Assembly: GCA_039621445.1 (NCBI GenBank)
Contig: CP154954.1
Span: 17,390,589 to 17,454,588 of the forward strand
DNA length: 64,000 bases
Source of the DNA: Euglena gracilis
Taxonomy: Eukaryota
Direction of reading: 5' to 3'
Shown: one piece after another, positions 18,171 through 61,382 of the stretch
Position numbering within the stretch: position 1 is the stretch's first letter
How the letters are laid out: each line of letters begins with the position of its first letter
Made by a program: the position numbers and the translations under genes
Notes under the pieces: model-generated
What the model was told of the DNA's origin: nothing
Databases searched by the model: none
What the model saw: only the letters and a program-made list of their open reading frames with translations

Positions 18171-18212
18171 ACGCCAGAAGAAAAAGAGAAGCACCAGCAG
18201 AGCCGCGGACGC

Positions 18213-18820: not shown

Positions 18821-18949
18821 AGGCACAGGACCACAAGCAGCGAAGCAGAAGGAGCAGTGTCCAACAGCCAAAGTGCAAGAGGTGACCATCAAGCCGTGGC
18901 ACGTAAAGCCGGCCCGCTTTCGAGTGGGCAGGATGCAAAGGAGAGGAGG

Positions 18950-21947: not shown

Positions 21948-24885
21948 CTGCTGCGATGGTCGTACCTGCAAACCCTGGCGGCCAAGGGGAAGAAGTTCCG
22001 GCTGGAGGGCCCCCCCGACACCGTCCTCCACGACCTCCGCCGGGCGCTGAACCAGTACACCGAGTGGGCAGCGCGCAGCAACCCCACCGACGCCACCTAC
22101 CTCCGGAAGCTGGGCGAGTGGGCCGACGCCGTGGAGGCCCGCTGCACCACCAACTGGCGGTGCTCGGCCGTCAGAGAAGAGCTGGTCCCCACCGGCTTCC
22201 CGGGCCTGTCACAGCAAATGCGGGAGGCCCACCAGGTCCTCGTCTTCCTCCACGACGACCGGGCCCCCCACGGCCTGATGTTCGTTTGCAAGCGCTGGTA
22301 CCAGAAGCAGATGGCCACCTACCTGGCGGACTCCACCGTGTTCGAGGACGTGACCGACACCTGGAGGGAGGTGGTTGCCCGGCTGTCGGAGGTCAACCAG
22401 CGGTTGCACTTCCCCACTGGCGCCGGTGTCGTCTACAACTACGGCATCTGGAAGCCAGCGAAGAAGAAGTTCCGGTTCATTGCCGGGACCCGCAAGAACC
22501 CCGATCCCGACCCCGGGTCCCCCGCCCCCGCCTCTGAGTCCGCCCCCGCCTCCGCCCCCACCGCCTCCAAGGAGCCCCCCCGGCAGCCCCTCTATGCCCT
22601 GAGCAAGGCTTTGGTGTCGCTCCTGAAGCACATCGAGGTCGCCCTCCGGGAAAAGGACGAGCGGCGGCAACAGCAGGAGGGCATCAAGGCGTTCTGGGGA
22701 ATCGACAGCGTGGAGTCTTTCGTCCGGATGGTCCGAACCCACTCCAAGGACATCCTGGCGGGGGGCTTGGAGACGGCGGACTTCACGACGATGTACACGG
22801 CCTTCACCTTCGACGCCATCATCGAGCGGACCATGGAGTCGGCCAAGGAGGCCTGGGCCTTCGTGCGGGAGACCAAGACCCCCGCTGGGGTGGACCCCGC
22901 CACCCCACCGTCCCTCACCACCGGCGGCTGGTCGTGGGATGGCCTCGGCTACTCCTTGGATGACCTGAAGGAGCTGGTGGCCGTGGCGGTGCAGAACAAC
23001 TACACCTGCAATGGCGGAAGGGTCCGGCGCCAGATCCGGGGCATGCCCATGGGCCTCCCCCCGGCCCCGCAGCTGGCCAACCTGGCCTGCTACCCCGTGG
23101 AGCGCGACCACATGTACGCCCTCCCTCCCCAGCTCCGGTCCTCCGCCGTGTCCCGATACATCGACGACATCGTCCACCCCACCACCATGCCCCTCCCCTC
23201 GGCAGCCGAGTACGGCATGGAGTACAAGACCACCGGCTCCGGCGAGTCCGTGGTGTGCCTGGGCGTCCGAGTGTACATCCAATGCCATTCCAACGGGGAC
23301 CGCGTGGTGCACACCACCGTCCACGACCGGGAGGAGGAGTACCCCCACCACATTGTTCGCTACCCCCTAGCCACCACCACCGCCCCCACCGAGCAGCTGG
23401 GCGGGGTCATCATGGGCCGCCTGGAGTTCGCCCGGATGGCCTGCAGCCACATGGGGGATTTCAAGCAGTCAGTGGCCAACGTCTTCCGCAACGCCATCTG
23501 GCGGGGGTACTCTCGCCGCCTGGTGCAATCGGTGTGGAGCCGCTTCCTCTTCCAGCGCTGGCATGCCGCCGACATCCGCGTCCGTGAGCTCCGCACCTGG
23601 TTTTCCAAGGTGTGGAAGTGGCTCCACTCCAGCCCCCACCGCGCTCCCCCAGCCCCATGGGCCACCGCCCTCCCCCTCGATGAGGCCCATGCCCCCTCCC
23701 AGGCCGACTTTCTCTCCGTCTTCGGCCACCCCGCACCCCTCCCCGGGGGCATCGACGACTTGCTGGCCGAGATGACGCCGCCCCCTTCCCCCTCCGCCTC
23801 CCATCCCTCCGACGTGGACGTGATGATCATCGACCGGGAGGCCCACGTGCGCCACGGCAAGCAGCAGGCCCCGAGAGGAGCGTCCCGATCCGTCCACTGG
23901 CCAGGGCTCAGAGAGGGGGACGCCCCAGAGGTGAGGTGCGCCCAATCCGTGAGCAGCAAGGGCAAGGACCCGGGGGTGATGCCGCCAAGGATCCCGCCCC
24001 CGGCGAGCCCGGGCGAGCCTCTACCAATCAGTCAAGAGGAGGGGGACGCCCCAAACAGCCGCAGCACCAGGCCGGCCCACACCGGGGCGGGGTTTACGCC
24101 GGGCAGTGAACCGGGGGTGACGCCGCCAAGGATCCCGCCCCCGGGGAGCCCGGGCGGGCCTGAGGACAGCGAGGGGGACGCCCCGAGCCACGGACTGGCC
24201 CACACCGTGACGGGGTTTACGTCGGGCTGTGAACTGGGGGTGACGCCGCCAAGGATCTCAGCCCCAGGGAGCCCGGGCGGGTCCGTGATCGTGCTGCCAG
24301 GACCGGCCTAAGAGCACGCGCGGGACGCCCCAAGCGACAGGCTGGCCCACACCGGAGCGGGGTTTACGCTGGGCGGTGAACCGGGGGTGACGCCGCCAAG
24401 GATCTCGCCCCCGGGGAGCCCGGGCGGGCCTGAGAGTTGCCAGCCCACGGCCATGGAGACAGAGACGGACGCCCTCGAGGGGGTTGCAGCGCAGCCAAGC
24501 ACCGCCTCCCAATCCCCCATCGCCCCAACGGCTCCCACAGCCTCCCAAGGCCCCCCTCTCTCCAACCCGGACTCCGCCTCCCCAACCCCATGCCTCCCCC
24601 CACCCACCCGTGAGGTCCTCCAGGAGCGGGTCGTCATCGTCGAGAGGCAGGTCCCCGTTCCCGTGCGGGAGCCTGTCTTCGTGGATCGGGTCATCGAGCG
24701 GGTCGTCCCTGTCCCCGTGCAAGTCCCCGTGGAGGTCCGGGTCCCCATGCCCGTCCCCGTCCCCGTGGAGGTCCGGGTTCCCGTCCCCATCTACCTCCCT
24801 CCCTCCGCGCCACAAGCCCCCTCCATCGTGCAGAATGTGCATCTCAACGCACTCACCATCGGCCCCTCCTCCTCCTCGTCTTCCT
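21948..24885 (+). mobile_element. Penelope-like element copy C, 5'-truncated (RT plus part of the C-terminal extension)
   Basis: TADFTTMYT, QIRGMPMGLPPAPQLANL and RYIDD (23157-23168). Near-identical in inverse to ~26078-29928. TAA at 24309-24311 where copies B and D read TCA. Confidence 0.9.
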
Positions 24886-26639
24886 GCCGCAGAGGGGGGA
24901 GGCCTCGCACGGGTTGCACGCCCACCTCCAGCCGGTGCGGCCCGAACTGGAGGGCCGGAGATACCAGCTCCGGCAGGCCGGGGGTGGCACACCTGCGATG
25001 TCACCGCCTCCGCGTCCGTGCTGGTCGTCGTCTCCTGCTGCCGCCGCTGCCGCCGCCGTCCGCCGCGACGATGGCCTTGCAGGGGCTCCCACGGGTTGGG
25101 ATGAGAGGGGATCGGAGGGGGGCCGGCCCCTGCCTCCCTCTCTCTCTCTCTCTCCTCTCCGCGATGGTCTCAATGCGGTTGGGGGCTCCGACTCCCCCCG
25201 AAAGTGGCGTTGAGCTTGGCATTTTTCCTGCAGCTTCTTCAGCTCCTTGCTGAGGGCGGAGATGCTGTCCGCCATCCTTTTGATCTCCTTGTGCAGTGCC
25301 GCCCCTCGCCGGCTCTGCACCGGTGTCCATGCGACACCTTCGTCTCTTCGGTCTCTTTCTTCTCCTCGGGGTGGGTTGCCCTGCGCACTCCCAGGGCGAG
25401 AGGGTCTCGAAAATCTCATGGCTGCTGAAGAAAAAGAATCCCCAGGGCGGCGCCCACGGGCCGCTTCCCTGTTGGGTCGCCAAGGGGCTTGGGGCCGGGG
25501 CAAATCCCGCTTCGCTTGCTCCCCTGCGGACGGGGTTGCGGGGCACAGGCACCACGCTGCCTGCCACCCGCCCGGACTTGGCTCGGTCTCGCTCCGGGGA
25601 CGTGGCTCCCGGAGGGTTGGTGGCCCTGGTGGGGGCCGTGGGGGTGGCGCCTTGGACCGGGGTGATCGGCCTCCCCGATCCTGGCACCTTCATGCCAGTC
25701 GTGCGTCTGGCGCTCGAGGTCCGCGGGGCGCTCGACGTTCTGGGCTGCTGCGGCTTCTTGCCATTCTTGGATGATGCTCCGCCGCTGGGGGCCGCACGAG
25801 GCCCAGACCTGGTTCTGCAGGTCCGGGTCCCATGATTCGTACATGGCTTGTCCTCGTCCTGCTTCTCGTGGATCCTTCAGCACCGCCTTCCACTCCTCGT
25901 ACTTGGCTCGCCACTCGGCAGGCCACTCACTCAATGAAGTGAACTTCCTCTTCTTCGTGGGGCCTTGGGAAGAGGTGTCGTCGTCGGTGGTGTCGCTGGG
26001 GGGCGGGGGGGGAGCAGTGAGGAGGGGGCGGTTGGGGGCCTCGATGGCGGGAATGGGGAGACCTTGGAGGAGGGCCAAGGAAGACGAGGAGGAGGAGGGG
26101 CCGATGGTGAGTGCGTTGAGATGCACATTCTGCACGATGGAGGGGGCTTGTGGCGCGGAGGGAGGGAGGTAGATGGGGACGGGAACCCGGACCTCCACGG
26201 GGACGGGGACGGGCATGGGGACCCGGACCTCCACGGGGACTTGCACGGGGACAGGGACGACCCGCTCGATGACCCGATCCACGAAGACAGGCTCCCGCAC
26301 GGGAACGGGGACCTGCCTCTCGACGATGACGACCCGCTCCTGGAGGACCTCACGGGTGGGTGGGGGGAGGCATGGGGTTGGGGAGGCGGAGTCCGGATTG
26401 GAGAGAGGGGGGCCTTGGGAGGCTGTGGGAGCCGTTGGGGCGATGGGGGATTGGGAGGCGGTGCTTGGCTGCGCTGCAACCCCCTCGAGGGCGTCCGTCT
26501 CTGTCTCCATGGCCGTGGGCTGGCAACTCTCAGGCCCGCCCGGGCTCCCCGGGGGCGAGATCCTTGGCGGCGTCACCCCCGGTTCACGCCCAGCGTAAAC
26601 CCCGCTCGGTGTGGGCCAGCCTGTCGCTTGGGGGCGTCC

Positions 26640-27590
26640 CCCCTCCATCTCCTTCCACTCACCTCTCATCCCCCTCCGCCCCGCTCCCGCGGGTGGAGGG
26701 GATCCTCTCCCTCGTCCCCCATACGCACCCTCTCCGCAGCTCCCTTCACGCCCGCCTGCATCCCCGTTCCCTGACACCCCCTCGTAACCCCCCCCCCCGC
26801 TCTTCTCTCCTGCTTTCCCTCACCTCCTTCACTCCCACTCCCTCCATCTTTGTGCCCCCCCCTCTCCCGTGCCTCCCCTTTCCTCCTCACGCCCTGCCTC
26901 TCCTTCCATCACCTCTTCCCCCCTCCCCTGGCTCCCCCCCCCTCACTCCTCCTCCCCCGCCTCCTTGGCCAGTTCCGCTTCCTCCTTTCTCCTTGGCCCT
27001 CATCCAATTCTTTCGCCCCGGCTCCGATGCTCGACCCTTCCCCTGCCTGACTGGGCTTCCTTGCACCCTCACCTTCTCCCCCTCCCCATCCTCCCAACTT
27101 CTTCACCACCCACCCCCTCCACTCCCCCTTTCTCTTCACGTGTGCCTCCCTTTCCACTCCTCTAGTTGCTCGCCCCCACCTCGCCCACCATGCCTCATGT
27201 CACCCTTTTCTACCTCCGGCGGGTCCTCCCAGCCCCACCCATCCCATCTGTACTTCCTCTGCTCCGTTCTCACTTTGTCTCCCTTTCCACATACGCCATT
27301 CTTTCATCGCTTCCCCCACTCCCTCTTAGCGCTCCCCACCCCCCCCCGACCCGCCTCAGACCTTTCCCCCTCGTCCCCATCCTTCCACAGCACCCGCACT
27401 CTGCCATCCCCGTACCTCCACCTTTCCTCCCCCGCTCTGGTCCTTGCCCGCCTCACCCCCCCGCGTCTCGCTGGCTCCTCCCTCTCACTACAACCCCACC
27501 CCCGCCCCATCCTTGCTCCGCCCCTCTCCCCCACGTCCCCTCCTTCCCCCGTCTTGTGCCCTCTCCTCCCCCTCTATTTTCCTGGCAGCA
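26640..27590. other. Non-periodic pyrimidine-rich block, probable read/consensus artefact
   Basis: Replaces a ~50-nt segment that is intact in copies B (~34095-34145) and D (~60065-60115). No repeat unit, TIR or TSD is visible. Confidence 0.65.
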
Positions 27591-30500
27591 GGCACGGCCG
27601 CCGGGCTCCCTGGGGCTGAGATCCTTGGCGGGTCACCCCCAGTTCACAGCCCGACGTAAACCCCGTCACGGTGTGGGCCAGTCCGTGGCTCGGGGCGTCC
27701 CCCTCGCTGTCCTCAGGCCCGCCCGGGCTCCCCGGGGGCGGGATCCTTGGCGGCGTCACCCCCGGTTCACTGCCCGGCGTAAACCCCGCCCCGGTGTGGG
27801 CCGGCCTGGTGCTGCGGCTGTTTGGGGCGTCCCCCTCCTCTTGACTGATTGGTAGAGGCTCGCCCGGGCTCGCCGGGGGCGGGATCCTTGGCGGCATCAC
27901 CCCCGGGTCCTTGCCCTTGCTGCTCACGGATTGGGCGCACCTCACCTCTGGGGCGTCCCCCTCTCTGAGCCCTGGCCAGTGGACGGATCGGGACGCTCCT
28001 CTCGGGGCCTGCTGCTTGCCGTGGCGCACGTGGGCCTCCCGGTCGATGATCATCACGTCCACGTCGGAGGGATGGGAGGCGGAGGGGGAAGGGGGCGGCG
28101 TCATCTCGGCCAGCAAGTCGTCGATGCCCCCGGGGAGGGGTGCGGGGGGGCCGAAGACGGAGAGAAGGTCGGCCTGGGGGGGGGCATGGGCCTCAGCGGG
28201 GGGGGGGGCGGTGGCCCATGGGGCTGGGGGAGCGCGGTGGGGGCTGGAGTGGAGCCACTTCCACACCTTGGAAAACCAGGTGCGGAGCTCACGGACGCGG
28301 ATGTCGGTGGCATGCCAGCGCTGGAAGAGGAAGCGGCTCCACACCGATTGCACCAGGCGGCGAGAGTACCCCCGCCAGATGGCGTTGCGGAAGACGTTGG
28401 CCACTGACTGCTTGAAATCCCCCATGTGGCTGCAGGCCATCCGGGCGAACTCCAGGCGGCCCATGATGACCCCGCCCAGCTGCTCGGTGGGGGCGGTGGT
28501 GGTGGCTAGGGGGTAGCGAACAATGTGGTGGGGGTACTCCTCCTCCCGGTCGTGGACGGTGGTGTGCACCACGCGGTCCCCGTTGGAATGGCATTGGATG
28601 TACACTCGGACGCCCAGGCACACCACGGACTCGCCGGAGCCGGTGGTCTTGTACTCCATGCCGTACTCGGCTGCCGAGGGGAGGGGCATGGTGGTGGGGT
28701 GGACGATGTCGTCGATGTATCGGGACACGGCGGAGGACCGGAGCTGGGGAGGGAGGGCGTACATGTGGTCGCGCTCCACGGGGTAGCAGGCCAGGTTGGC
28801 CAGCTGCGGGGCCGGGGGGAGGCCCATGGGCATGCCCCGGATCTGGCGCCGGACCCTTCCGCCATTGCAGGTGTAGTTGTTCTGCACCGCCACGGCCACC
28901 AGCTCCTTCAGGTCATCCAAGGAGTAGCCGAGGCCATCCCACGACCAGCCGCCGGTGGTGAGGGACGGTGGGGTGGCGGGGTCCACCCCAGCGGGGGTCT
29001 TGGTCTCCCGCACGAAGGCCCAGGCCTCCTTGGCCGACTCCATGGTCCGCTCGATGATGGCGTCGAAGGTGAAGGCCGTGTACATCGTCGTGAAGTCCGC
29101 CGTCTCCAAGCCCCCCGCCAGGATGTCCTTGGAGTGGGTTCGGACCATCCGGACGAAAGACTCCACGCTGTCGATTCCCCAGAACGCCTTGATGCCCTCC
29201 TGCTGTTGCCGCCGCTCGTCCTTTTCCCGGAGGGCGACCTCGATGTGCTTCAGGAGCGACACCAAAGCCTTGCTCAGGGCATAGAGGGGCTGCCGGGGGG
29301 GCTCCTTGGAGGCGGTGGGGGCGGAGGCGGGGGCGGACTCAGAGGCGGGGGCGGGGGACCCGGGGTCGGGATCGGGGTTCTTGCGGGTCCCGGCAATGAA
29401 CCGGAACTTCTTCTTCGCTGGCTTCCAGATGCCGTAGTTGTAGACGACACCGGCGCCAGTGGGGAAGTGCAACCGCTGGTTGACCTCCGACAGCCGGGCA
29501 ACCACCTCCCTCCAGGTGTCGGTCACGTCCTCGAACACGGTGGAGTCCGCCAGGTAGGTGGCCATCTGCTTCTGGTACCACCGCTTGCAGACGAACATCA
29601 GGCCATGGGGGGCCCGGTCGTCGTGGAGGAAGACGAGGACCTGGTGGGCCTCCCGCATTTGCTGTGAAAGGCCGGGGAAGCCGGCGGGCACCAGCTCTTC
29701 TCTGACGGCCGAGCACCGCCAGTTGGTGGTGCAGCGGGCCTCCACGGCATCGGCCCACTCGCCCAGCTTCCGGAGGTAGGTGGCGTCGGTGGGGTTGCTG
29801 CGCGCCGCCCACTCGGTGTACTGGTTCAGCGCCCGGCGGAGGTCGTGGAGGACGGTGTCGGGGGGGCCCTCCAGCCGGAACTTCTTGCCCTTGGCCGCCA
29901 GGGTTTGCAGGTACGACCACCGCAGCAGCTCGGACTCGTTGCTCACCACGTGGCCCTCGTGGAAGGCCGCCGGCTCCTTCCGGCGGAGGGCTGTGTGGCA
30001 CTGGCAGCCCTCGAGGTCGTCGGCCTGCGCGGCGGCCACGTCCAGCTCGCTGGAGACCTGGGCGTAGTTGCACAGCCACGCCTGCCACTGCGGGGCGAAC
30101 TTGTCGCAGACCATGATGGCGGCGGCGACGTCCGGGTTGGGGTGGAGCTTGTAGACGGCCTCCTCCCGCAACACCTTGCGCAGCTCCAGGTGGCGGGCGC
30201 CGTTGTTGGAGTAGGAGAACTTCAGGAACTGCCGCTCGGGGGCCTCCTTCCTCTTCGCCTTGATGAGCTCCACCAGCTTGCACTCCAGGGAGAGGTGGCC
30301 GGAGCGCCGCTCGTCGTCCGGGACGTGCTGTTGCAGCCAGTCCAGGGTGGAACACAACCGCGCCTTGCCCCAGGAGCGTGCCTCCGCCAGGGCGCTGGAG
30401 TCCCCTTGGTGGCAGCGGCGGAGCCACTTGGCTAGGTCAGGGCTGGGCGGAGGGTCGCCTTGGGATGTGGGGGCGGGGTCGGGGCTGGGGAGGGTGTGCT

Positions 30501-30635
30501 GGCGGCGGAGCACCTTCCGGCTGACGGGGAAGCCGGGGTAGGCGGCGTTGAAGCCGTGGGGCCACATGGAGTTGAGGAGGCCCACCCACTTGCGCTCGCG
30601 GGCGAGGGCATCCCGGGGGGGGGGGGGGGGGGGGT

Positions 30636-30673
<38 letters not shown>

Positions 30674-31304
30674 CGGGGGGGGGGGGGGGGTGGGGGGGGG
30701 GGGGGGGCGCGGCCCGGGGGAAGCTGTCTGGTGAGGGGAGCCTCTCGATGGGGATCATGAGGAAGGAGAAGGGGGTGGGGTCGTTGGCCAGGGCGTCGTG
30801 CAGGGCGTCGGCGCAGCGCCCCCGGCTCCACCAGTGCTCCTTGGTCCGCTTGTAGACCTTCCGCGTGGTCTGCCCAACGTAGAGCCGCCCCGTGGGGAAG
30901 TGGAAGAGGGCGTAAATCCAGCCAGGGGCGTCCCACAGGGCGGCCACGTTGCCCCAATCCACGGCGGCATTGGCTGGGTCGGAAGAGCGGAGCTGCAGGA
31001 CCCTGCGCATGGTCTTGTTGCGCCAGGATTGCCGCCCCCAGCTGCGCTGCATCCACTGAAGGTGGTCCTGCCAGCTCCACTGCCCCTCGTTGCGGCGGTG
31101 GCGGGACGGCTGGGGGTCATGCTTGTCGTAGGGCTCGGCGATGGGGAGGGCGCGGTCATCCCGGGAGTGGGATGGCCTGGGGGGCCTTCGGGAAGAGGGT
31201 TGCCCGGGAGGGCGCTCGGGGGGAGGCCTGGGGGTGCGAGAAACCTCACCAGGCAATTCTGAGTGGACCCCGGGGAAAGCTCCCCGAGCCGCAGGGACTG
31301 CGGA

Positions 31305-31680
31305 AATCTCTCTTCTTGATTGGTATGGACGGGGTATTCTGGGTGCGGGTGGGGGTGGGGATGGGAGGGGATGGGGAGGGAGGTGGGGGGGCGCCGCAGA
31401 GGGGGGAGGCCTCGCACGGGTTGCACGCCCACCTCCAGCCGGTGCGGCCCGAACTGGAGGGCCGGAGATACCAGCTCCGGCAGGCGCCTCGCAGGGAGGG
31501 CATACATGGGATGCCGCTCCGATCGGAGGGGGGCCGGCTCGTCGTCTGCCGCCGCCGCCGTCCGCCGCGACGATGGCCTCGCAGGGGATCCCACGGGTTG
31601 GGATGAGAGGGGATCGGAGGGGGGCCGGCCCTTGCCTCCCTCTCTCTCTCTCTCTCTCCCCTCCGCGGTGGTCTCCTCCG
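31305..31680 (-). repeat. pLTR-like direct repeat of the Penelope-like family
   Basis: The same block recurs at ~32050-32625 (with a ~95-nt subunit triplicated), ~58030-58400, ~24886-25165 (partial) and ~37767-38145 (diverged). It occurs both before the ORF start and at element 3' ends. Confidence 0.85.
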
Positions 31681-31818
31681 CGGTCTCTCTCTCTCTCTTC
31701 TGAATCGGTGTTGCTGGGGGAACTCCTTGGGGGGAACTCCTTGCCGACCCGAGAGTGTGTGCTTGTGGGGGAAGTGTGTTGTCAGTCGGTGTGGGCGCGT
31801 GTGTTGTCAGTCTGTGTT

Positions 31819-31891
31819 GCGGTTTCGCCCCAGGCTGGCAGGTGGGGCATCGTCAGGGGTGACGACCCTGCCAACCCTCGTCCCCGACCGC
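31819..31891 (-). ncRNA. Type III hammerhead ribozyme
   Basis: Minus strand reads GCGG-UC/GGG-GACGA-gggUUGGCAggg-UCGUC-a-CCC-CUGACGA-U-GCCCCA-CCUGCCAGCC-UGGGGC-GAAA-CCGC. The core is complete, stems I-III pair, and GUC cleavage is predicted between 31886 and 31885. Confidence 0.92.
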
Positions 31892-32035
31892 GCTTGTCTG
31901 TGTGGTGCAGACCGTTACAAACGAGCTCTGCGTCCCCCTCCGGGGGGGGGGGGGGGGGGGGGGGGGCTGAAAAAAACCGGCCCCAAAAACAAGGCAGCGC
32001 GGGACGGAAAAATGGTCCACTACCTACGGGGCACC

Positions 32036-35000
32036 CTCTCTCTCTCTCTCTCTCTCTTCTTGATTGGTATGGACGGGGGATTCTGGGTGCGGGTGGGGGT
32101 GGGGATGGGAGGGGGTGGGGGGGTGCCGCAGAGGGGGGAGGCCTCGCACGGGTTGCACGCCCACCTCCAGCCGGTGCGGCCCGAACTGGAGGGCCGGAGA
32201 TACCAGCTCCGGGGTGAGGGAGGTGGGGGGGTGCCGCAGAGGGGGGAGGCCTCGCACGGGTTGCACGCCCACCTCCAGCCGGTGCGGCCCGAACTGGAGG
32301 GCCGGAGAGCTCCGCTCCGGGTGAGGGAGGTGGGGGGGTGCCGCAGAGGGGGGAGGCCTCGCACGGGTTGCACGCCCACCTCCAGCCGGTGCGGCCCGAA
32401 CTGGAGGGCCGGAGATACCAGCTCCGGCAGGCCGGGGGTGGCACACCTGCGATGTCGCCGCCTCCGCGTCCGTGCTGGTCGTCGTCTCCTGCTGCCGCCG
32501 CTGCCGCCGCCGTCCGCCGCGACGATGGCCTCGCAGGGGATCCCACGGGTTGGGATGAGAGGGGATCGGAGGGGGGCCGGCCCTTGCCTCCCTCTCTCTC
32601 TCTCTCTCTCCCCTCCGCGGTGGTCTCGATGTGGTTGGGGGCTCCGACTCCCCCCGACAGTGGCGTTGAGCTTGACATTTTTCCTGCAGCTTCTTCAGCT
32701 CCGCGCTCAGGGCGGAGATGGTGTCCGCCATTCTCTTGATCTCCTTGTGCAGGGCAGCCCCTCGCCTGCTCTGCACCGGCGTCCATACGTCGCCTTCTTC
32801 TCTTCTGCCTCTTGCTTCATCACGGGGTTGGTTGCCCTGCGCACTCCCAGGGCGAGAGGGTCTTGTAGATCTCATGGCGCTTGAACTTTGTGATTCCCCA
32901 GGGCGGTGCCCACGGGTCGATTCCCTGTTGGGTCGCCAAGGGGCTTGGGGCCGGGGCAAATCCCGCTTCGCTTGCTCCCCTGCGGACGGGGTTGGCGGGG
33001 CACAGGCACCACGCTGCCTGCCACCCGCCCGGACTTGGCTCGGTCTCGCTCCGGGGACGTGGCTCCCGGAGGGTTGGTGGCCCTGGTGGGGGCCGTGGGG
33101 GTGGCGCCTTGGACCGGGGTGGTCGGCCTCCCCGATCCTGGCACCTTCATGCCAGTCGTGCGTCTGGCGCTCGAGGTCCGCGGGGCGCTCGACGTTCTGG
33201 GCTGCTGCGGCTTCTTGCCATTCTTGGATGATGCTCCGCCGCTGGGGGCCGCACGAGGCCCAGACCTGGTTCTGCAGGTCCGGGTCCCATGATTCGTACA
33301 TGGCTTGTCCTCGTCCTGCTTGTCGTGGGTCCTTCAGCACCGCCTTCCACTCCTCGTACTTGGCTCGCCACTCGGCAGGCCACTCACTCAACGAAGTGAA
33401 CTTCCTCTTCTTCGTGGGGCCTTGGGAAGAGGTGGGGGCGGCGGTGGTGTCGCGGGGTGGGGGGGGGGGGGTGGGGTGGAGGAGGCGGTTGTGGGCCTCG
33501 ATGGCGGGAATGGGGAGACCTTGGAGGAGGGCCAAGGAAGACGAGGAGGAGGAGGGGCCGATGGTGAGTGCGTTGAGATGCACATTCTGCACGATGGAGG
33601 GGGCTTGTGGCGCGGAGGGAGGGAGGTAGATGGGGATGGGGAACCCGGACCTCCACGGGGACGGGGACGGGCATGGGGACCCGGACCTCCACGGGGACTT
33701 GCACGGGGACCGGGACGACCCGCTCGATGACCCGATCCACGAAGACAGGCTCCCGCACGGGAACGGGGACCTGCCTCTCGACGATGACGACCCGCTCCTG
33801 GAGGACCTCACGGGTGGGTGGGGGGAGGCATGGGGTTGGGGAGGCGGAGTCCGGGTTGGAGAGAGGGGGGCCTTGGGAGGCTGTGGGAGCCGTTGGGGCG
33901 ATGGGGGATTGGGAGGCGGTGCTTGGCTGCGCTGCAACCCCCTCGAGGGCGTCCGTCTCTGTCTCCATGGCCGTGGGCTGGCAACTCTCAGGCCCGCCCG
34001 GGCTCCCCGGGGGCGAGATCCTTGGCGGCGTCACCCCCGGTTCACCGCCCAGCGTAAACCCCGCTCCGGTGTGGGCCAGCCTGTCGCTTGGGGCGTCCCC
34101 GCTCGGCTCTGAGGCCGGTCCTGGCAGCACGATCACGGACCCGCCCGGGCTCCCTGGGGCTGAGATCCTTGGCGGCGTCACCCCCAGTTCACAGCCCGAC
34201 GTAAACCCCGTCACGGTGTGGGCCAGTCCGTGGCTCGGGGCGTCCCCCTCGCTGTCCTCAGGCCCGCCCGGGCTCCCCGGGGGCGGGATCCTTGGCGGCG
34301 TCACCCCCGGTTCACTGCCCGGCGTAAACCCCGCCCCGGTGTGGGCCGGCCTGGTGCTGCGGCTGTTTGGGGCGTCCCCCTCCTCTTGACTGATTGGTAG
34401 AGGCTCGCCCGGGCTCGCCGGGGGCGGGATCCTTGGCGGCATCACCCCCGGGTCCTTGCCCTTGCTGCTCACGGATTGGGCGCACCTCACCTCTGGGGCG
34501 TCCCCCTCTCTGAGCCCTGGCCAGTGGACGGATCGGGACGCTCCTCTCGGGGCCTGCTGCTTGCCGTGGCGCACGTGGGCCTCCCGGTCGATGATCATCA
34601 CGTCCACGTCGGAGGGCTGGGAGGCGGAGGGGGAAGGGGGCGGCGTCATCTCGGCCCGCTCGTCGTCGCTGCCCCCGGTGACGCGTCCGGGGTGGCCGAA
34701 GCCGGAGAGAAAGTCGGCCTGGGGGGGGGCAAGGGCCTCAGGGAGGGGGAGGGCGTGGGCCCGTGGGGTTGGGGGAGCGCGGTGGGGGCTGGAGTGGAGC
34801 CACTTCCACACCTTGGAAAACCAGGTGCGGAGCTCACGGACGCGGATGTCGGTGGCATGCCAGCGCTGGAAGAGGAAGCGGCTCCACACCGATTGCACCA
34901 GGCGGCGAGAGTACCCCCGCCAGATGGCGTTGCGGAAGACGTTGGCCACTGACTGCTTGAAATCCCCCATGTGGCTGCAGGCCATCCGGGCGAACTCCAG

Positions 35001-37766
35001 GCGGCCCATGATGACCCCGCCCAGCTGCTCGGTGGGGGCGGTGGAGGTGGTGAGGGTTTAGCCAACAGTTTGGTGGGTGTACGCGTCCTCCCTGTCGTGT
35101 ACGGTGGTGTGCACCACGCGGTCCCCGTTGGAATGGCATTGGATGTACACTCGGACGCCCAGGCACACCACGGACTCGCCGGAGCCGGTGGTCTTGTACT
35201 CCATGCCGTACTCGGCTGCCGAGGGGAGGGGCATGGTGGTGGGGTGGACGATGTCGTCGATGTATCGGGACACGGCGGAGGACCGGAGCTGGGGAGGGAG
35301 GGCGTACATGTGGTCGCGCTCCACGGGGTAGCAGGCCAGGTTGGCCAGCTGCGGGGCCGGGGGGAGGCCCATGGGCATGCCCCGGATCTGGCGCCGGACC
35401 CTTCCGCCATTGCAGGTGTAGTTGTTCTGCACCGCCACGGCCACCAGCTCCTTCAGGTCATCCAAGGAGTAGCCGAGGCCATCCCACGACCAGCCGCCGG
35501 TGGTGAGGGACGGTGGGTGGCGGGGTCCACCCCAGCGGGGGTCTTGGTCTCCCGCACGAAGGCCCAGGCCTCCTTGGCCGACTCCATGGTCCGCTCGATG
35601 ATGGCGTCGAAGGTGAAGGCCGTGTACATCGTCGTGAAGTCCGCCGTCTCCAAGCCCCCCGCCAGGATGTCCTTGGAGTGGGTTCGGACCATCCGGACGA
35701 AAGACTCCACGCTGTCGATTCCCCAGAACGCCTTGATGCCCTCCTGCTGTTGCCGCCGCTCGTCCTTTTCCCGGAGGGCGACCTCGATGTGCTTCAGGAG
35801 CGACACCAAAGCCTTGCTCAGGGCATAGAGGGGCTGCCGGGGGGGCTCCTTGGAGGCGGTGGGGGCGGAGGCGGGGGCGGACTCAGAGGCGGGGGCGGGG
35901 GACCCGGGGTCGGGGTCGGGGTTCTTGCGGGTCCCGGCAATGAACCGGAACTTCTTCTTCGCTGGCTTCCAGATGCCGTAGTTGTAGACGACACCGGCGC
36001 CAGTGGGGAAGTGCAACCGCTGGTTGACCTCCGACAGCCGGGCAACCACCTCCCTCCAGGTGTCGGTCACGTCCTCGAACACGGTGGAGTCCGCCAGGTA
36101 GGTGGCCATCTGCTTCTGGTACCAGCGCTTGCAAACGAACATCAGGCCGTGGGGGGCCCGGTCGTCGTGGAGGAAGACGAGGACCTGGTGGGCCTCCCGC
36201 ATTTGCTGTGACAGGCCCGGGAAGCCGGTGGGGACCAGCTCTTCTCTGACGGCCGAGCACCGCCAGTTGGTGGTGCAGCGGGCCTCCACGGCGTCGGCCC
36301 ACTCGCCCAGCTTCCGGAGGTAGGTGGCGTCGGTGGGGTTGCTGCGCGCTGCCCACTCGGTGTACTGGTTCAGCGCCCGGCGGAGGTCGTGGAGGACGGT
36401 GTCGGGGGGGCCCTCCAGCCGGAACTTCTTCCGCAGGTACGACCACCGCAGCAGCTCTGACTCGTTGCTCACCACGTGGCCCTCGTGGAAGGCTGCCGGC
36501 TCCTTCCGGCGGAGGGCTGTGTGGCACTGGCAGCCCTCGAGGTCGTCGGCCTGCGCGGCGGCCACGTCCAGCTCGCTGGAGACCTGGGCGTAGTTGCACA
36601 GCCACGCCTGCCATTGCGGGGCGAACTTGTCGCATACCATGATGGCTGCGGCGACGTCCGGGTTGGGGTGGAGCTTGTAGACGGCCTCTTCCCGCAACAC
36701 CTTGCGCAGCTCCAGATGGCGGGCGCCGTTGTTGGAGTAGGAGAACTTCAGGAACTGCCGCTCGGGGGCCTCCTTCCTCTTCGCCTTGATCAGCTCCACC
36801 AGCTTGCACTCCAGCGAGAGGTGGCCGGAGCGCCGCTCGTCGTCCGGGACGTGCTGCTGCAGCCAGTCCAGGGTGGAACACAGCCGCGCCTTGCCCCAGG
36901 AGCGTGCCTCCGCCAGGGCGCTGGAGTCCCCTTGGTGGCAGCGACGGAGCCACTTGGTTAGGTCGGGGCTGGGCGGGGGGTCGCCTTGGGATGTGGGGGC
37001 GGGGTCGGGGCTGGGGAGGGTGTGCTGGCGGCGGAGCACCTTCCGGCTGACGGGGAAGCCGGGGTAGGCGGCGTTGAAGCCATGGGGCCACATGGAGTTG
37101 AGGAGGCCCACCCACTTGCGCTCGCGGGCGAGGGCATCCCGGCGGGCGAGGGCGCGGCGGTCAGCCCGGGGGAAGCTGTCGGGTGAGGGGAGCCTCTCGA
37201 TGGGGATCATGAGGAAGGAGAAGGGGGTGGGGTCGTTGGCCAGGGCGTCGTGCAGGGCGTCGGCGCAGCGCCCCCGGCTCCACCAGTGCTCCTTGGCCCG
37301 CTTGTAAACCTTCCGGGTGGTCTGCCCAACGTACAGTCGCCCCGTGGGGAAGTGGAAGAGGGCGTAAATCCAGCCGGGGGCATCCCACAGGGCGGCCACG
37401 TCGCCCCAGTCCACGGCGGCGTTGGCTGAGTCGGTGGAGCGGAGCTGCAGGACCCTGCGCATGGTCTTGTTGCGCCAGGATCGCCGCCCCCAGCTGCGTT
37501 GCATCCACTGCAGGTGGTCCTGCCAGCTCCACTGCCCCTCGTTGCGGCGGTGGCGGGACGGCTGGGGGTCGTGCTTGTCGTAGGGCTCGGCGATGGGGAG
37601 GGCACGGTCATCACGGGAGTGGGACGGCCTGGGGGGCCTTCGGGAAGAGGGTTGCCCGGGAGGGCGCTCGGGGGGAGGCCTGGGGGTGCGAGAAACCTCG
37701 CCAGGCAATTCACGGTGGACCCGGGGTGGACCCCGGGGAAAGCCCCTCGAGCCGCACGGACTGCGA
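32036..37766 (-). mobile_element. Penelope-like element copy B, full-length layout with frameshifts
   Basis: ORF pieces 35453-37708, 35058-35465, 33384-35009 and 32024-33937. GIY-YIG WIYALFHFPTGRLYVGQTTRKVYKRAKEH...ERKW at ~37090-37375 and YIDD at 35253-35264. Ends in the pLTR plus (GA)n. Confidence 0.92.
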
Positions 37767-40700
37767 AATCTCTCTCTTGATTGTTATGGACGGGGATTCT
37801 GGGTGTGGTTGTGAGTGGGGATGGGTAGGGGGATGGTTAGGAGGTGGGGGGGTGCCGCAGAGGGGGGAGGCCTCGCACGGGTTGCAACGCCCACCTCCAT
37901 AGCCCGGTGGGCGGCCCTAACTGGACGGATACCAGTACCAGGCTCCGGCAGCCGGGGGTGGCACACCGCTGCGACCCCCCTTGGGGGCCCGCTGCCTCCC
38001 CCACGTCCGTGCCGGTGTCGTCTCCGCTGCGCCGCTGCCGCCGCCGTCCGCCGCTTGACGATGGCTCTCGCAGGGATCCCACGGGTTGGGATGAGAGGGG
38101 GTCGGAGGGGGGCTGGCCCTTGCCTCTCTCTCTCTCTCTCTCTTTTACCACGTGGGTTTCCCTTGCCTTCCTTCGCCTTGCCCCCTCCCCCCATCCCTTG
38201 GCCTCCTGGTCCCCCCCGGTGGTGCCCGGTCTGTCCTGGCGCTCTGGGCTGCCCTTTCCCTTGCCCCCCTCCCCCCCTTCCCTTGGCCCCTCTCCGGTCC
38301 TCCGGGGGGCTGCCCGTCTGTCTAGCGCGCTGGGCTGCCCCTTCCCCCTCCCCCCTCCCTTGCCTGCTGGTGGGTGTGTGGCGGTCCCCGTGCGTGCGTG
38401 CGTGCTGGGGGGGCGGCGCTCCCCCCATGGGCTCCGCACGCCTTTCACGCCACCCCCGGACCCCGCGCCAGGGCCCGGGGGCCCGGGGATGCCACCGCCG
38501 GCGAGCCCCCCACCCCCCAGGGCCCCGTCGGCGTGGTACACCTCGTTCTGGTACCCGCATGACGGGCACGGCTGGCAGGTTCCGTGCCCGGCACGCGGGT
38601 TTCGGGGATCTCCGTGGCCGTGTCGATCTTGGGCTCCGTCGCCTCGTCCTCGGCCTCGTCCTCCCCGTCCTCCGCGTCCTCGTTGCTCTGGTGGCGGCTG
38701 CCTGCTCGCTTGGCGGCTTGGGGGTTCAAACCCAATGGATCTCTTCCGCCCCCGGCGTTGTTGCTGTGGCTGCAGGGGGGCCCAGGGGTTGTCGTCCCTT
38801 AGGTCCGGTCGTTGCTGCTGCTGCTGCGGGGGCGGATTCTGCCGCCATTGGTCGAGCTCTTGCTGCATTTCTTGCAGCGCCCGTTGGAGCCCTTGGAGGC
38901 GCTTTTGGAGGCGTTTTCGGCCGGTGCTTTGTGCTGTTTGCCAGCCCTCTCCTTGGGGTTGGCCCTGCCGGCTTCCTTGTGGGGTGACGTTTCCTTTGCC
39001 ACCCTTGCCTCCTTTCCTGGGCTGTGTCTGCCCTTTTCCTGTTTGTTGTCCTCCTCGCTGGGCCCCCCCTTTTGGGTTGGGCTGTTGGTACCCTCTTTGG
39101 GGTGGTCCGGGGTTCTTTGCTTCCCCGATCCGTGCCCCTTTCTTCCAGTCGTGCTGGTCTTGGCTTCTGCTTCTGGGGCACGGTTCTTCTGCTCCTTCGT
39201 CCCGCTTGACGGCGTGTCGGGCCACGCCCTGCCAGTGATTGGCAGGTACCCCTGGAGATCCGCCCCAGGTCGGTTGCGGGTTCTTAGGCTGGCGCCCCGC
39301 CTGCCACCCGGGGCAGAGGTCCTCTGCGCCGGGCAGGCCGTCATTGCCTGGCATGCCTGTGATTTTTGTGCGTCATGGTGCTGGTGGGTTCTTTTTGTTC
39401 GTCGTCCCGATTGACGGCGTGCCGGGACACGCCCTGCCGGTGATCGGCAGGTACCCCTGGAGAGCCGCCCCAGGCCGGTCGCGGGTGATTCTTTGGGCTC
39501 CCCGCTTGCCCCTCGGGGGGGTCCGCTGCCGACCCTTCCTCTTCTGGGCCTGGCTGCTTCGCCTCCCCGATGCGCTGGCCTTCCTGCCAGTCGTGGCTGG
39601 TGGGTTCTCCACCTTCGTCTTCCGCTCCGGTGTGGGACCTCCGCCTCTCTTCTCGCGTGCTTCTGGCTTGGCCTTCTGCTTGGGTTGGTGGGCCTTCGTT
39701 CTCCCTCGCCTTCCATCGGCGGATCTCGTCCCTCCGCTTGTCGGCGACGGCTGCCCACACTTGGTCTTGGAGGCTTTGGTCCCACCCCTGCCACATCTCG
39801 TGGCGGTCGCTTGCTTTGGGCGTGGCCTTGAAGCGCTCGTACTGCTCCCGCCACTCTGCCGGCCACTCGGCCAAGCGCGTGTACAGCCTCTTCTTGCGTT
39901 GGCTTGGCTGGGTTGCCTGCGAGGCGTCGTCCCCTTCGGTGGGCTGTGGTGTGGCCGCCTCCTCCACCACCACCGACACTGGGCGCTTGTTGCCCAGGAG
40001 TCGGTCTGTGGCCATGGGGTCGCTTCTTGCCGGTGCCTCCTCGGTGGCTGTGGTGCTTTGTGCTTCCTGCGTGGGGGTGGCGCTCGGTGGCGGTGTGGCG
40101 CTTGTTGTTGGTGTTGGTAGGGCCGGCGTGCTGCTTGCCGCTGCTGCTGCTGCGGGCACGGGGCTGGTGCTGCCGGGTGGTGCTGCTGGCGTGGCGGTGG
40201 TGCTGGCCCCTTCCGTTGCGGGTGGTGGTAGGTTGCTGCTTGGCGGTGGTGCTGCTCCTGCCGGGGTGGTGCCTGCTGCGGGCGATGTGGGTGTGGCGGC
40301 GGTGGGTGCGTCTTCGATCGCCAGCGTGGCGCGGTGGGTGAGGTGGCGGCTCTCTTGCTGCTGCTGTTGCTGCTGCCAGATCCATCGCACCATTTCGATG
40401 AGCAGTGCCCGTTGGGGGTCCACTGCTCCTTCCGCCGGGTAGGGCTGTGGTCGCCCCATCTCCCGCTGCCACCGGGCCCTTGTCGGCCCGGTGGTGCTGC
40501 TGACCGCTTGGATCAGTCGTTGGACTGGCATGGGCAGCTGTGCGCTCGCCCCCCGGAGCAGCGCGGTCACTGCGCCGGTGTCCATCCCCGGCAGCCGCAG
40601 CGGGCGTTCCACTGGCACCAGGCGCTCCACGTGCACCGGCACCGGGTACGGTGTGGGCACTGCGCGCTCCACGACCACCGGCACGGGTACGTGGTACGGC

Positions 40701-40960
40701 ACTGGGATCTGTACCGGCACCACGCGCTCGACGTACACCGGCACGGGACAGGGGGTGGGCACCGGCACCGGCACCGGGTACGGTTGGGGCACCTGGACCA
40801 CTTGCAGCGGCTGCTGCACTGTGGTTGTTGGCGGCTGCTGGCTGGTTGGCGTCGCCGCTGATGTCTGTGTGGTGGGTGTAGGGGAAGCGCCGGCCACCTC
40901 CCGCTCCTGTGTGCTCGCTGTGCACCGTGTTTCGGCCGACCGTTGGAGCTGGGATATCTG
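37767..40960 (-). mobile_element. 3' half of a diverged sister Penelope-like subfamily, head-to-tail upstream of copy B
   Basis: ORFs 39341-41032 and 37837-39354 share the VPV repeat, the LAEWPAEWREQYE...WDQSLQDQVWA domain and the HDWxxGxRIGEAxxPGP motif with the C-terminal extension of copies A-D. They end in a diverged pLTR. No RT is present. Confidence 0.7.
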
Positions 40961-43318
40961 GCAAGCCGCGGCTAGCGGCTGGCTGGCTGGAAAAAAAAGA
41001 GGAGGAAGGTCTGGCCAGCCATGGCCAGCCACGGCCTGGCTGAGGGGATTTAGAGGAGGAGGAGGTCTGGCTGGCTGCGATGGGACTTTTCAAAAAATTA
41101 TGATTCACCCATACGCAAAAAATTGCTTGCATTCCTAATCCTTCTTCTTCTGTTTTACGGAGCATGGCGTTAGGCTGGAGGGGGGGGTTCCTGGCTCGCC
41201 GGCCGACAAGCCAGGAACTGGCATGGTCGGCAGCTAATCGGCGAGATAGGGGGGGGGTCCTGGCCAGTCGGCCGACTAGCCGGCGAAATATCCACTCTAA
41301 CGTACTAACAGGCCAAACCCGCCGACTTTTAAAAAAAACCCCCCCATGAAGAAAATTGTATGCAAGCTGGTCGGTGGTCATAAAAAATGGTCTGTGGTGG
41401 GCCCAAGTCACCCGGAAATGGTCCGGATGGGTCCACATAAGTGCCTTACACACCAACATAAACACCCTCAGATGGAAATCTTTGGTCGGTGGGGGTAGGT
41501 GGGGCCCTTGATGAGGGCCCAGAGGGGTTAAAGACCAATGATGGAACAGGGATTACATGAAAATCCTTTAGAAATGCAAGCATTCTGCATCACGAGAGGC
41601 AGAAATCTCCCCCCTCCACCCCCATCCGAGCCTCAAATAACAAAAAGGTAAGGTAAGTGTTCAGTCCCGAGGTACCCCCCCCCCTATATGACACCCCTGG
41701 GGGGGGTCATCTAGGGGGGGGTCACAGAGCAGAGCAATTTTTCAAGTGGGAAAAGTATCCCCCCCTAAATGACCCCCCCTAGATGACCCTTTGGGGGGTC
41801 CTGAAGCAACATTAATAGGGTCATTCAGGGGGGGGGTACGTGATTCCTACTCTGCGATTATTTAAGCCCCGCCCCCCTCAGCAAAGGAAGTTAACAGAAA
41901 GAGGTCATTCTGTGGAGTTTTTGTTGATGTTTGGCATGGTTTATTTCATTTAATTAGTTGTAACTGATATTTTTCTGCGTTTTTATCTCTGAAATTGCAA
42001 TTAAAATTCCCAATTATTGATGTTTTGGTGTGAAATTGTAATTAAATTGATGTTTTTTCTTCTGTTACCTTTCAATTACAAATATGAATTACCAAGCAGA
42101 AACGAAAAAAAAAAAAAGAAAGAAGACGGCGAAGCACGAAGGAACGGAAGAGGGTCGCGCGAGACATTTCGCGCGAGTCACGCGGTCATGCCGCCCCCTT
42201 GCCCTCTTTATGAGTGTACGGTGGTGCCCTTGCCCTTACCGTTTCCGGAAGCCGGAGAGGGGGGTTGAGCCCCTCGCGTCCCCCGCGTCCCCCCCCCCCG
42301 CGTCCCCCCCGCGTCCCCACCAAGTGGCTTGGTGTCCTTTTTTGAAGAGGCTTTTCTGCAATGTCCCGGCATGCTTGTGTGATGAAACAAAGAAAAGGGG
42401 AGAAGGACAAAGAACGTTGGAAATTGAGAAGTCAAATTTTTATCCTTGCCACTCAAAAAAATGGTAGTTGTTTGCTGGACCCCAGGTATTGGGGGGGGGT
42501 CCCGTGGGACCCCCTGCCGCTTGTGATGGGTGAAGGTCATGACCTAACGAGTCTCTTACAGATGCTTCCGATTTCTTTGTACTGCAGTTGATGGGATGCG
42601 GGAAGACAATTGGTGGTGGATGCAAAAGTGTCCATTTGTTATTTCCTGTTTGTTCGGCATGATCAATGCTAATCCTAGAATGTCCCCCCGCAATCACTGC
42701 ACACCTTTCCCATTTTGTGTCCTTTTTGTTGACACCGTTCCCATCTCCTGTTCTCTTTTCCATTTCGTCAATTTTTTTCAGCCCATGGCATTCAGCCCAT
42801 CCTCTCACCTGGAATTTCTGATCATGGTGTATCCCAAAGAGCCGTCTTCCCATTTTGAGTTTGCTAGAGACTGCCTTTCAAATAATTTTTTTGAAAGGGA
42901 ATTTTGTAGGATATTCTAATCGACCAGCACATTTTTTGGGAATGTTGGGCCATTTTTGACTCCATTTTGGGTGTGGAAATGCACCAGAGTTTGGAGTTTT
43001 TTTTTTTAAGAGGACGTTGTGTTGCAAAACTTCTTTTAAAAAACACACTTTCCATTTTTTTTTAAAAGGCACTTTTTTGTTGCTTTTTTAAATAAAAAAA
43101 AACAGAACATAATTTTTTTTAAAAAAAGTCAGTTGCGTGTGCGGAAGAGGAAACAGAGGAGGATGGCCACTCTGGGTTGGTCAGAAACTGAAACTGGGCG
43201 GGATCGTTGTCCAGGTAACCCTTAGCTTCAGCGGGCCGTTGCACTCCGCACAGAAGACGGTGGCGCCGTCGGCGGAGCTCTCCGCAAGGGTCTTGGCCCA
43301 GTCCCAGGGATCGGCGTA

Positions 43319-61000: not shown

Positions 61001-61382
61001 TGGGGGCGGTGGTGGTGGCTAGGGGGTAGCGAACAATGTGGTGGGGGTACTCCTCCTCCCGGTCGTGGACGGTGGTGTGCACCACGCGGTCCCCGTTGGA
61101 ATGGCATTGGATGTACACTCGGACGCCCAGGCACACCACGGACTCGCCGGAGCCGGTGGTCTTGTACTCCATGCCGTACTCGGCTGCCGAGGGGAGGGGC
61201 ATGGTGGTGGGGTGGACGATGTCGTCGATGTATCGGGACACGGCGGAGGACCGGAGCTGGGGAGGGAGGGCGTACATGTGGTCGCGCTCCACGGGGTAGC
61301 AGGCCAGGTTGGCCAGCTGCGGGGCCGGGGGGAGGCCCATGGGCATGCCCCGGATCTGGCGCCGGACCCTTCCGCCATTGCA
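58010..61382 (-). mobile_element. Penelope-like element copy D, 5'-truncated within RT
   Basis: Begins at CNGGRVRRQIRGMPMG, has YIDD at 61221-61232 and the full C-terminal extension, and ends in the pLTR plus (GA)n at ~58010-58035. Confidence 0.9.

Follow-up and report, generated by a model that had tools for sequence, protein, structure and literature searches.

Layout of the locus and of the motif copies

The 64,000-nt stretch of Euglena gracilis DNA analyzed here (contig CP154954.1; "the window" below, whose coordinates are used throughout) harbors several copies of a retroelement that matches the description of Chlamys-type Penelope-like elements (PLEs). Each integrated unit carries, 3' of the stop codon of its reverse transcriptase (RT), a separate accessory open reading frame (ORF), designated ORF-X, and ORF-X contains a conserved peptide motif that probably represents an undescribed third sequence class of StopGo/2A peptides. 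A sequence-only reading had reported five copies of this motif without naming the strand and had placed them in the PLE polyprotein. Translation of the minus strand confirmed all five copies at their positions, and the assignment to the polyprotein was not borne out. The plus strand at the five positions encodes unrelated peptides only, for which reason a plus-strand reading of the motif was rejected. The copies are listed below, with residue positions given as plain numbers counted back from the terminal Pro.

25653..25703, minus strand: motif copy a, translated as HDWHEGARIGEADHPGP, with H at position 4
33110..33160, minus strand: motif copy b, HDWHEGARIGEADHPGP, in a frame unbroken from the helical domain via the motif to the tail
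58883..58933, minus strand: motif copy c, HDWHEGARIGEADHPGP, within an element copy that is disrupted and 5'-truncated
39103..39153, minus strand: motif copy d, HDWKKGARIGEAKNPGP, subfamily 2, with N at position 4, nearest to the family consensus
39545..39595, minus strand: motif copy e, HDWQEGQRIGEAKQPGP, subfamily 2, with Q at position 4

These are not five independent samples, as copies a, b and c are nearly identical (their host element copies share 94-99% of their DNA sequence) and d and e are tandem duplicates. Copies d and e are 442 bp apart and in different frames, and their translations, read without a formal alignment, suggest that both lie within a tandemly duplicated unit of the second subfamily; copy e, the duplicate of the d unit, is followed by a stop codon 67 codons downstream. 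Different synonymous codons are used by subfamilies 1 and 2 at seven invariant residues and amino-acid replacements are confined to the variable "x" positions, which indicates selection on the peptide rather than on the nucleotides. The back-translated core RIGEAx(N/H)PGP had four matches in the window versus 0.00 expected from 100 shuffles; copy e was missed because it has Q where the pattern requires N or H.

In all three subfamily-1 copies of ORF-X, which lie on the minus strand, the RT stop codon is followed by a variable tandem-repeat block, an ATG (26510, 33968 and 59936), Pro/Val-rich repeats, a Trp-rich domain, the motif, a basic region, a coiled coil, an NPWDPL block and a tail ending in (GA)n. 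The frames and their parts are as follows.

32024..34030, minus strand: ORF-X copy B, a stop-to-stop frame with the Pro/Val-rich repeats, motif, basic region and tail
33197-33412, 32666-32785 and 32525-32551, minus strand: Trp-rich helical domain, coiled coil and NPWDPL block of copy B, respectively
25416..26819, minus strand: ORF-X copy A, with ATG at 26510, helical domain at 25740-25955 and the motif
58013..60072, minus strand: ORF-X copy C, with ATG at 59936, insertions of ~158 bp and 10 bp, and single-base indels
37837..41089, minus strand: subfamily-2 ORF-X, in two frames
39341-41089, minus strand: subfamily-2 frame with the N-terminal part, the helical domain at 39698-39898 and motif copy e
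37837-39372, minus strand: subfamily-2 frame with motif copy d, the coiled coil at 38842-38943, DDNPWAPLQ at 38770-38796 and SIGFEPPSR at 38713-38739

The ATG of copy B at 33968 is out of frame because of one extra base about 110 codons downstream, and the frame of copy A is shifted by a 1-bp deletion 37 codons past the motif. In copy C, the ~158-bp insertion (59080-59236, minus strand) lies inside the Trp-rich domain, and its ends repeat the flanking "CAAGCCATGTACGAAT" in the manner of a footprint or a small duplication. About 40-70 codons past the motif (25416-25600, 32900-33040 and 58700-58870, minus strand), the subfamily-1 frame reads AKRDLPRPQAPWRPNRE, and most family members have AKGIxPGPNPxxDxxGNRP at the same place. 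In copies A and C, the shifted frame reads GICPGPKPLGDPTGxRPVG and is similar to this family consensus, which suggests paired compensating frameshifts downstream of the motif in the subfamily-1 lineage.

At two places the tail of ORF-X directly abuts the 5' end of the next unit, and at the 3' end of copy C the (GA)n adjoins AT-richer flanking DNA. Since ORF-X comes after the RT stop and copy C ends against flanking DNA, ORF-X is the 3' part of the integrated unit and lies upstream of the endonuclease/RT ORF only via a pseudo-long terminal repeat (pseudo-LTR) arrangement. Transcription of one Chlamydomonas element begins in the pseudo-LTR (PMC8557442), and by analogy translation of ORF-X could therefore precede that of the endonuclease/RT. 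RNA reads from three raw runs with the same species label were too few, giving mean depths mostly below 2 and no joints over 31000-39700. A candidate 287-nt intron worked out by hand at 37680-37966 on the minus strand (G/GTGTGC at 37967/37966 to CAG/G at 37680/37679) would connect the subfamily-2 ORF-X in phase with the endonuclease/RT frame, and the counterpart donor of subfamily 1 (32447/32446) is out of phase under the same rule.

The sequences following the motif had been described as unrelated between the subfamilies, which did not hold. When the two subfamilies were compared pairwise by BLASTP from the motif onwards, only the tail matched, and an alignment of 16 family members revealed common blocks, namely WxxVQ followed by the coiled coil, DDNPWxPL and SIGFxPPSR, all in the motif frame. 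An unbroken 444-residue frame runs through the motif in one metagenome contig. Based on a 41-row alignment, AlphaFold2 predicted four helices at residues 16-78 with a predicted local distance difference test (pLDDT) score above 90, and the motif region had a pLDDT of 56-64 (low confidence). The model thus places the motif in a predicted disordered linker between the helical Trp-rich domain and the basic/coiled-coil module. Foldseek found no match for the helical domain in PDB at E<=0.001.

Conservation of the motif in the ORF-X family

A profile of the Trp-rich domain and the motif from both subfamilies was searched against 1.84 billion representative sequences and detected 49 proteins at E<=0.001 (18 at E<=1e-10), a sample that leans to motif-bearing proteins because the profile contained the motif. 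A loose pattern fixing only G-[EQ]-[AS]-x-x-P-[GAR]-[PHA] identified 42 instances in 37 of the 49 proteins, whose form is S-H-(D/N)-W-x-E-G-x-R-I-G-E-A-x-(N/H)-P-G-P. The Gly at p12 (42/42) is forced by this pattern. At the positions that are not forced, conservation was also strong:

H: 40/42 instances
D or N: D in 23 and N in 16 of 42
W: 34/42, with Y in 3 and F in 1
E: 33/42
Upstream G: 41/42
R: 40/42
I: 32/42, with M in 4, L in 3, V in 2 and F in 1
Position 4: N in 30, H in 8, Q in 2, K in 1 and T in 1 of 42

Position 5 varies in the family (K, S, D, A, T or Q), the residue following PGP is unconserved, and the flanks of the motif are variable and of low complexity. Among the remaining 12 proteins, three have variants of one or a few residues and most others are short predictions ending in or soon after the domain; two longer proteins without a pattern match (P0019 and P0049) lose similarity past the domain.

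In addition, the motif is portable: five family proteins contain two copies each, in one protein a copy follows an AAA_28 domain (E 2.5e-14), and a coiled-coil protein has the motif without the PLE domain. A metagenome scan with the long W...PGP pattern detected only two loci. Word-index homologue searches with the domain plus motif, or with the motif alone, gave no matches; these searches are limited in sensitivity and are not evidence of absence.

Occurrence in RNA-virus polyproteins

When the back-translated core RIGEAx(N/H)PGP was searched against IMG/VR, 27 loci were found on 26 contigs, 25 of which have a length of 1.2-10.4 kb. Almost all loci (25/27) lie inside ORFs of at least 321 aa, and the other two loci, in frames of 23 residues and of 122 residues on a 56-kb contig, are apparently chance matches. 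The same-composition control RIGAEx(N/H)PGP (E/A swap) had seven matches, all on contigs of 7.6-53 kb, and the second such control, RIGEAx(N/H)GPP (P/G swap), had no match in IMG/VR. On the basis of these scrambled controls and the window shuffles, chance or low complexity was rejected as the origin of the motif.

All (N/H)PGP tetrapeptides in the 24 viral ORFs from the whole contigs (35/35) are preceded by [R/H]-Φ-G-[E/D]-A-x, where Φ is I, F, Y or V, including 10 sites that fall outside the search pattern (RFGEA, RYGEA, RVGEA, RIGDA and HIGEA). At position 4, 25 of these sites have N and 10 have H, p13 is E in 34 and D in one, p14 is A in all 35, and codons vary freely across sites; the number of independent sites is below 35, because L014/L035 and L038/L041 have identical site contexts. 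Multiple sites per ORF were observed, with two ORFs having two, three having three and one having five. The full PLE form, H(D/N)(W/F/Y)xxGxRIGEAx(N/H)PGP, is present in three viral ORFs (L030, L039 and L040), and L030 and L039 also have an RNA-dependent RNA polymerase (RdRp). L020, L029, L043 and L046 have near variants of its upstream part, and the remaining types of upstream part are HRPKxAxxGxRIGEA and RRKRKDR(Y/F)QGVRIGEA.

Four of the 13 full ORFs scanned had RdRP_1, a picorna-like RdRp, above the Pfam cut-off of 23.9 bits (132, 123, 56 and 30.5 bits), and in all four this domain is N-terminal to the motif(s). A zinc-ribbon match just under its cut-off (22.3 bits, cut-off 25) begins one residue past a PGP, and weak coat-protein S-domain matches, below cut-off, were found downstream of the motif in two contigs. 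The post-motif viral segments had no meaningful match among PDB sequences, and a search of IMG/VR for relatives of one post-motif protein returned only itself. With its five sites, L048 (2-4141, plus strand) is divided beyond the RdRp into three segments of ~120-130 residues plus a 490-residue and a 154-residue segment. In L039 (2-3595 / 3562-8025) and L030 (3-3704 / 3581-7654), the RdRp opens the second of two long ORFs; these two are read in different frames and overlap by about 30-120 nt, a layout that suggests ribosomal frameshifting.

Comparison with known 2A/StopGo peptides

The published StopGo core is (D/G/C/N)(V/I)ExNPGP, in which p14 and p16-p19 are almost invariant and a rare H is accepted at p14 and p16 (PMC12846837). 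In F2A, the side chain of E14 stacks onto an rRNA base (PMC12846837). Peptides with H in place of N are functional (PMC12846837; PMC12338488), G is common at p12 and can be active instead of D, and a single change to A at the E position keeps 39-74% of the activity (bioRxiv 10.64898/2026.09.24.754024). The proposal that the Euglena motif is a non-canonical variant without D(V/I)ExNPGP was borne out, as the peptide ends in (N/H)PGP with E at p13 and A at p14. The C-terminal tetrapeptide is NPGP in copy d and HPGP, the rare form, in copies a-c, and QPGP in copy e does not fit; p12 is G in all five window copies, one of the four residues accepted there. As in a portable module, multiple sites are found per viral ORF, downstream of RdRP_1, and two copies occur in five database proteins.

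With canonical class A (F2A, T2A and P2A), the motif shares the NPG/P end with occasional H, about 18 conserved residues, a free residue after the Pro, location between functional modules, multiple occurrence in RNA-virus polyproteins, conservation at the peptide rather than the codon level, and an accepted G at p12. It differs from class A in having E rather than V/I at p13, A rather than E at p14 and, in the upstream part, an invariant R (p10) and I (p11) and the lack of a Leu-rich helix. Because its core departs at two positions, the motif would be undetectable in surveys allowing one deviation: the octapeptide search of Li et al. 2026 was limited to those deviating at no more than one position (PMC12846837), and the "class X" peptides have a single core substitution, with V or I retained in every clustered motif (bioRxiv 10.64898/2026.09.24.754024).

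Class B of Rao et al. 2025 is typified by WVRDLTEEGIEPHPGP, with W at position 16, N/H at position 4 and Pro at position 5 (PMC12338488), and is equivalent to what Li et al. 2026 call upstream motif 1, W-V-R-D-L-T-E-E-G-I-E-P-(N/H)-P-G-P. Its H variants are weaker than its N variants, and a one-residue shift of the tryptophan in any direction abolished activity (PMC12338488). The motif described here resembles class B in its upstream tryptophan, N/H at position 4, G at position 8 from the terminal Pro, acidic center and occurrence in protist genes and RNA viruses. In contrast to class B, its W is at position 15 (5/5 window copies and 34/42 family instances), its center is RIGEA rather than EEG(I/V)E, such as EEGIE, and position 5 is variable without the class B Pro. 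Membership in class B was rejected on account of the different tryptophan register and center. The 2A-like peptides of non-LTR retrotransposons (L1Tc of Trypanosoma cruzi and CR1-type elements) are also skipping-type peptides inside a retroelement protein, and those of L1Tc and CR1-4_NV end in HPGP; they differ in having a GD(V/I)(E/A)x core near the N-terminus of the element protein, whereas the present motif lies in a separate accessory ORF of a PLE.

RIGEA, RVGEA, GEASNPGP, GEAKNPGP and GEASHPGP were not found in four supplementary files of PMC12338488, nor was the motif core in two supplementary files of PMC12846837. "GEA" and kindred strings were also not found in the main texts of both bioRxiv preprints, whose libraries are outside this comparison, or of a picornavirus 2A review. 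In full-text literature, no GEAx(N/H)PGP spelling was matched and RIGEA-like strings were irrelevant among the matches listed; the literature pairing NPGP with dinoflagellate did not mention the motif.

A probable third StopGo class and its alternatives

Taken together, the comparative evidence favors a StopGo-type separating function for the motif, because of its conservation in 37 of 49 homologues, the several sites per viral polyprotein, the N/H alternation and the linker position. A new StopGo class is the most economical explanation of these sequence data, since it accounts for an (N/H)PG-P end with a free next residue, for the position in a linker between modules and for repeats along RNA-virus polyproteins without a canonical 2A site. 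The proposed class has the core R-Φ-G-E-A-x-(N/H)-P-G/P, with I as the usual residue at Φ and F, Y, V, M or L as occasional ones, and in the element described here S-H-(D/N)-(W/Y/F)-x-E-G-x stands ahead of this core. We infer that a nascent peptide of ~18 residues would occupy the ribosomal exit tunnel and that, while the P site contains Gly and the A site contains Pro-tRNA, the ester of the peptidyl-tRNA would be hydrolyzed without formation of a peptide bond, after which translation would resume from the Pro. ORF-X would then yield two products: the N-terminal Pro/Val-rich repeats with the four-helix Trp-rich domain, ending in ...GEAx(N/H)PG, and a protein starting at Pro with the basic region, coiled coil, DDNPWxPL and SIGFxPPSR. 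By analogy, the putative C-terminal product resembles a retroelement ORF1-type nucleic-acid chaperone.

Several observations weigh against a StopGo function. All five window copies have E at p13, where V/I is the rule, and A at p14, where the rule is E or, rarely, H. The tryptophan is one residue nearer to PGP than the register-critical W of class B, and position 4 is H in the three young copies of the window and Q in copy e. Each of the three subfamily-1 ORF-X copies carries at least one frame-breaking change, and the inclusion of the motif in the profile tilts the family counts. Among the 13 viral ORFs scanned, nine have no Pfam domain above cut-off, so that a "domain boundary" is shown in only a few.

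Three other explanations are less likely. The motif might be a short linear binding or structural motif, e.g., for docking of a host factor, in a protein that stays uncleaved. Its predicted position in a disordered linker would suit such a role, as for many linear motifs, as would the misfit to the published StopGo core at p13 and p14 and the fact that both flanking modules are always in one frame. This explanation is nevertheless unlikely, as it leaves unexplained why up to five copies should be spaced along a viral polyprotein beyond the RdRp, why the motif is present at every (N/H)PGP in 24 viral ORFs, and why N and H alternate beside a strict P-G-P. It is also possible, if rather improbable, that the motif is a linker recognized by a protease (a host peptidase or a viral 3C-like enzyme) and separated by post-translational proteolysis. 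Protists such as dinoflagellates process nuclear-encoded polyproteins at conserved linkers, the motif lies at polyprotein junctions, and the upstream ORF of one viral genome has a faint 3C-protease-like match (E 0.16). However, no recognizable protease was found in the retroelement or in the cellular-type motif proteins, the 10-18 residues kept across unrelated viruses, the retroelement and other proteins are far longer than usual 3C-type sites, and the motif ends in exactly the StopGo-defining (N/H)PGP with an invariant Pro after the Gly. Both the binding and the protease explanations account for fewer observations than a StopGo peptide does. Finally, a StopGo-related arrest peptide with upstream release and inefficient restart, which would control dosage by giving much N-terminal and little C-terminal protein, is very unlikely: "falloff" and lowered abundance have been reported for eukaryotic 2A-like peptides (bioRxiv 10.64898/2026.06.17.732966) and the window copies have H and Q at position 4, but the viral ORFs, the sole counter-evidence, have structural-type proteins beyond several successive sites and would therefore need efficient continuation.

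The StopGo interpretation may be extended beyond the window. On the sequence evidence, we lean towards the view that the motif is a mechanistically active third class common to protist retroelements (with the first PLE case), other protist proteins and picorna-like RNA viruses, and that all recent systematic 2A surveys missed it for breaking two "invariant" positions.

The host element and neighboring repeats

The G+C content is 0.66-0.71 in 21948-41500 and 58013-61382, compared with about 0.5 around them, and self-comparison revealed that both regions are made up of copies of a single retroelement, arranged in tandem, inverted or truncated at the 5' end. The tandem units span 27580-34119 and 34119-40650; the inverted copy covers 21948-24885, and the 5'-truncated one occupies 58013-61382. 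The frames of the endonuclease and RT are:

35453..37783, minus strand: endonuclease/RT ORF of unit 2, covering the GIY-YIG-like sequence WIYALF...YVGQT (37319-37375), CQCH as the CxC motif, and the RT's N-terminal half
27574..31116, minus strand: RT ORF of unit 1, with YIDD at 28702-28722 and stop codon at 27574-27576
30432-31781, minus strand: GIY-YIG part of unit 1, in a frame other than that of the unit-1 RT ORF
21948..24885, plus strand: inverted, 5'-truncated copy of the RT region, head to head with ORF-X copy A at 24885
59304..61664, minus strand: RT part of the 5'-truncated copy C, with homology to the other copies beginning at 61382

The GIY-YIG-like module, which lies upstream of the RT and in one ORF with it in unit 2, had weak Pfam matches below cut-off (E 0.0068-0.0078; 17 bits, cut-off 22.6). 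The RT matched RVT_1 at 20-24.5 bits, below the cut-off of 29.6, with YIDD present, and CQCH is present in both endonuclease/RT ORFs. A comparison of the RT ORF with PDB sequences gave no meaningful match. An Rfam scan of 21000-62000 detected no family at gathering score, and hence no hammerhead ribozyme.

The element matches the description of Chlamys-type PLEs (PMC8557442), a match that includes weak endonuclease/RT assignments. The element has in common with them a putative GIY-YIG-like module preceding the RT, a CxC motif, pseudo-LTRs in the form of partial copies (tandem and inverted), truncation at the 5' end, tandem repeats within the element, a (C)n run at an insertion end and no hammerhead ribozyme (PMC8557442). 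Unlike in those elements as described, a long extra ORF is present here between the RT stop and the 3' end; in the sections covered, the extra ORFs mentioned are only an upstream zinc-knuckle ORF in one Chara family, besides N-terminal extensions, and the description has neither NPGP nor PGP (PMC8557442). Reported Chlamys insertion sites are (C)n and (CA)n (PMC8557442). A run of 25 C (31942-31966, minus strand) is located just beyond the (GA)n end of unit 1, within ~360 bp of non-element DNA separating two element pieces. Tandem repeats of ~145 bp, variable in number, lie between the RT stop and ORF-X (26645-27580; also 23960-24433, 33988-34461 and 59956-60429), and this block is ~920 bp longer in copy A than in copies B and C.

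Other repeats surround the PLE copies. A second repeat family (49955-52479 and 61378-64000, 98-99% identical) starts exactly at the 5' truncation of PLE copy C and, in its second occurrence, extends past the window edge. In addition, an LTR-type retrotransposon polyprotein was found at 16671-22537 on the plus strand, with strong RT and RNase H matches (E about 1e-22) and, ahead of the RT, a weak C-5 cytosine methyltransferase match (E 0.001, below cut-off) and faint aspartyl-protease matches. Retrotransposons carrying a DNA methyltransferase (DNMT) are known from dinoflagellates and charophytes (PMC5890265), and the one seen here may give a hint of the type of host.

Significance

Thousands of co-expression constructs use 2A/StopGo peptides, and current models of their mechanism rest on the near-invariant V/I-E before xNPGP. 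If active, the G-E-A class would widen the sequence rules for skipping, would provide new co-expression tools, and would be a test case for the structural model, since its Glu is displaced by one residue and its conserved Arg and Trp occupy a new register; skipping would then be driven by a nascent chain in a register other than that of the F2A cryo-EM structure. It would also follow that surveys tied to a fixed motif miss part of the StopGo signals of protist viruses and mobile elements. For the PLEs, an active motif would be the first such signal in this group and would explain how two proteins arise from one accessory ORF, and the extended motif common to the retroelement and RdRp-encoding viruses points to exchange or convergence between viruses and protist mobile elements.

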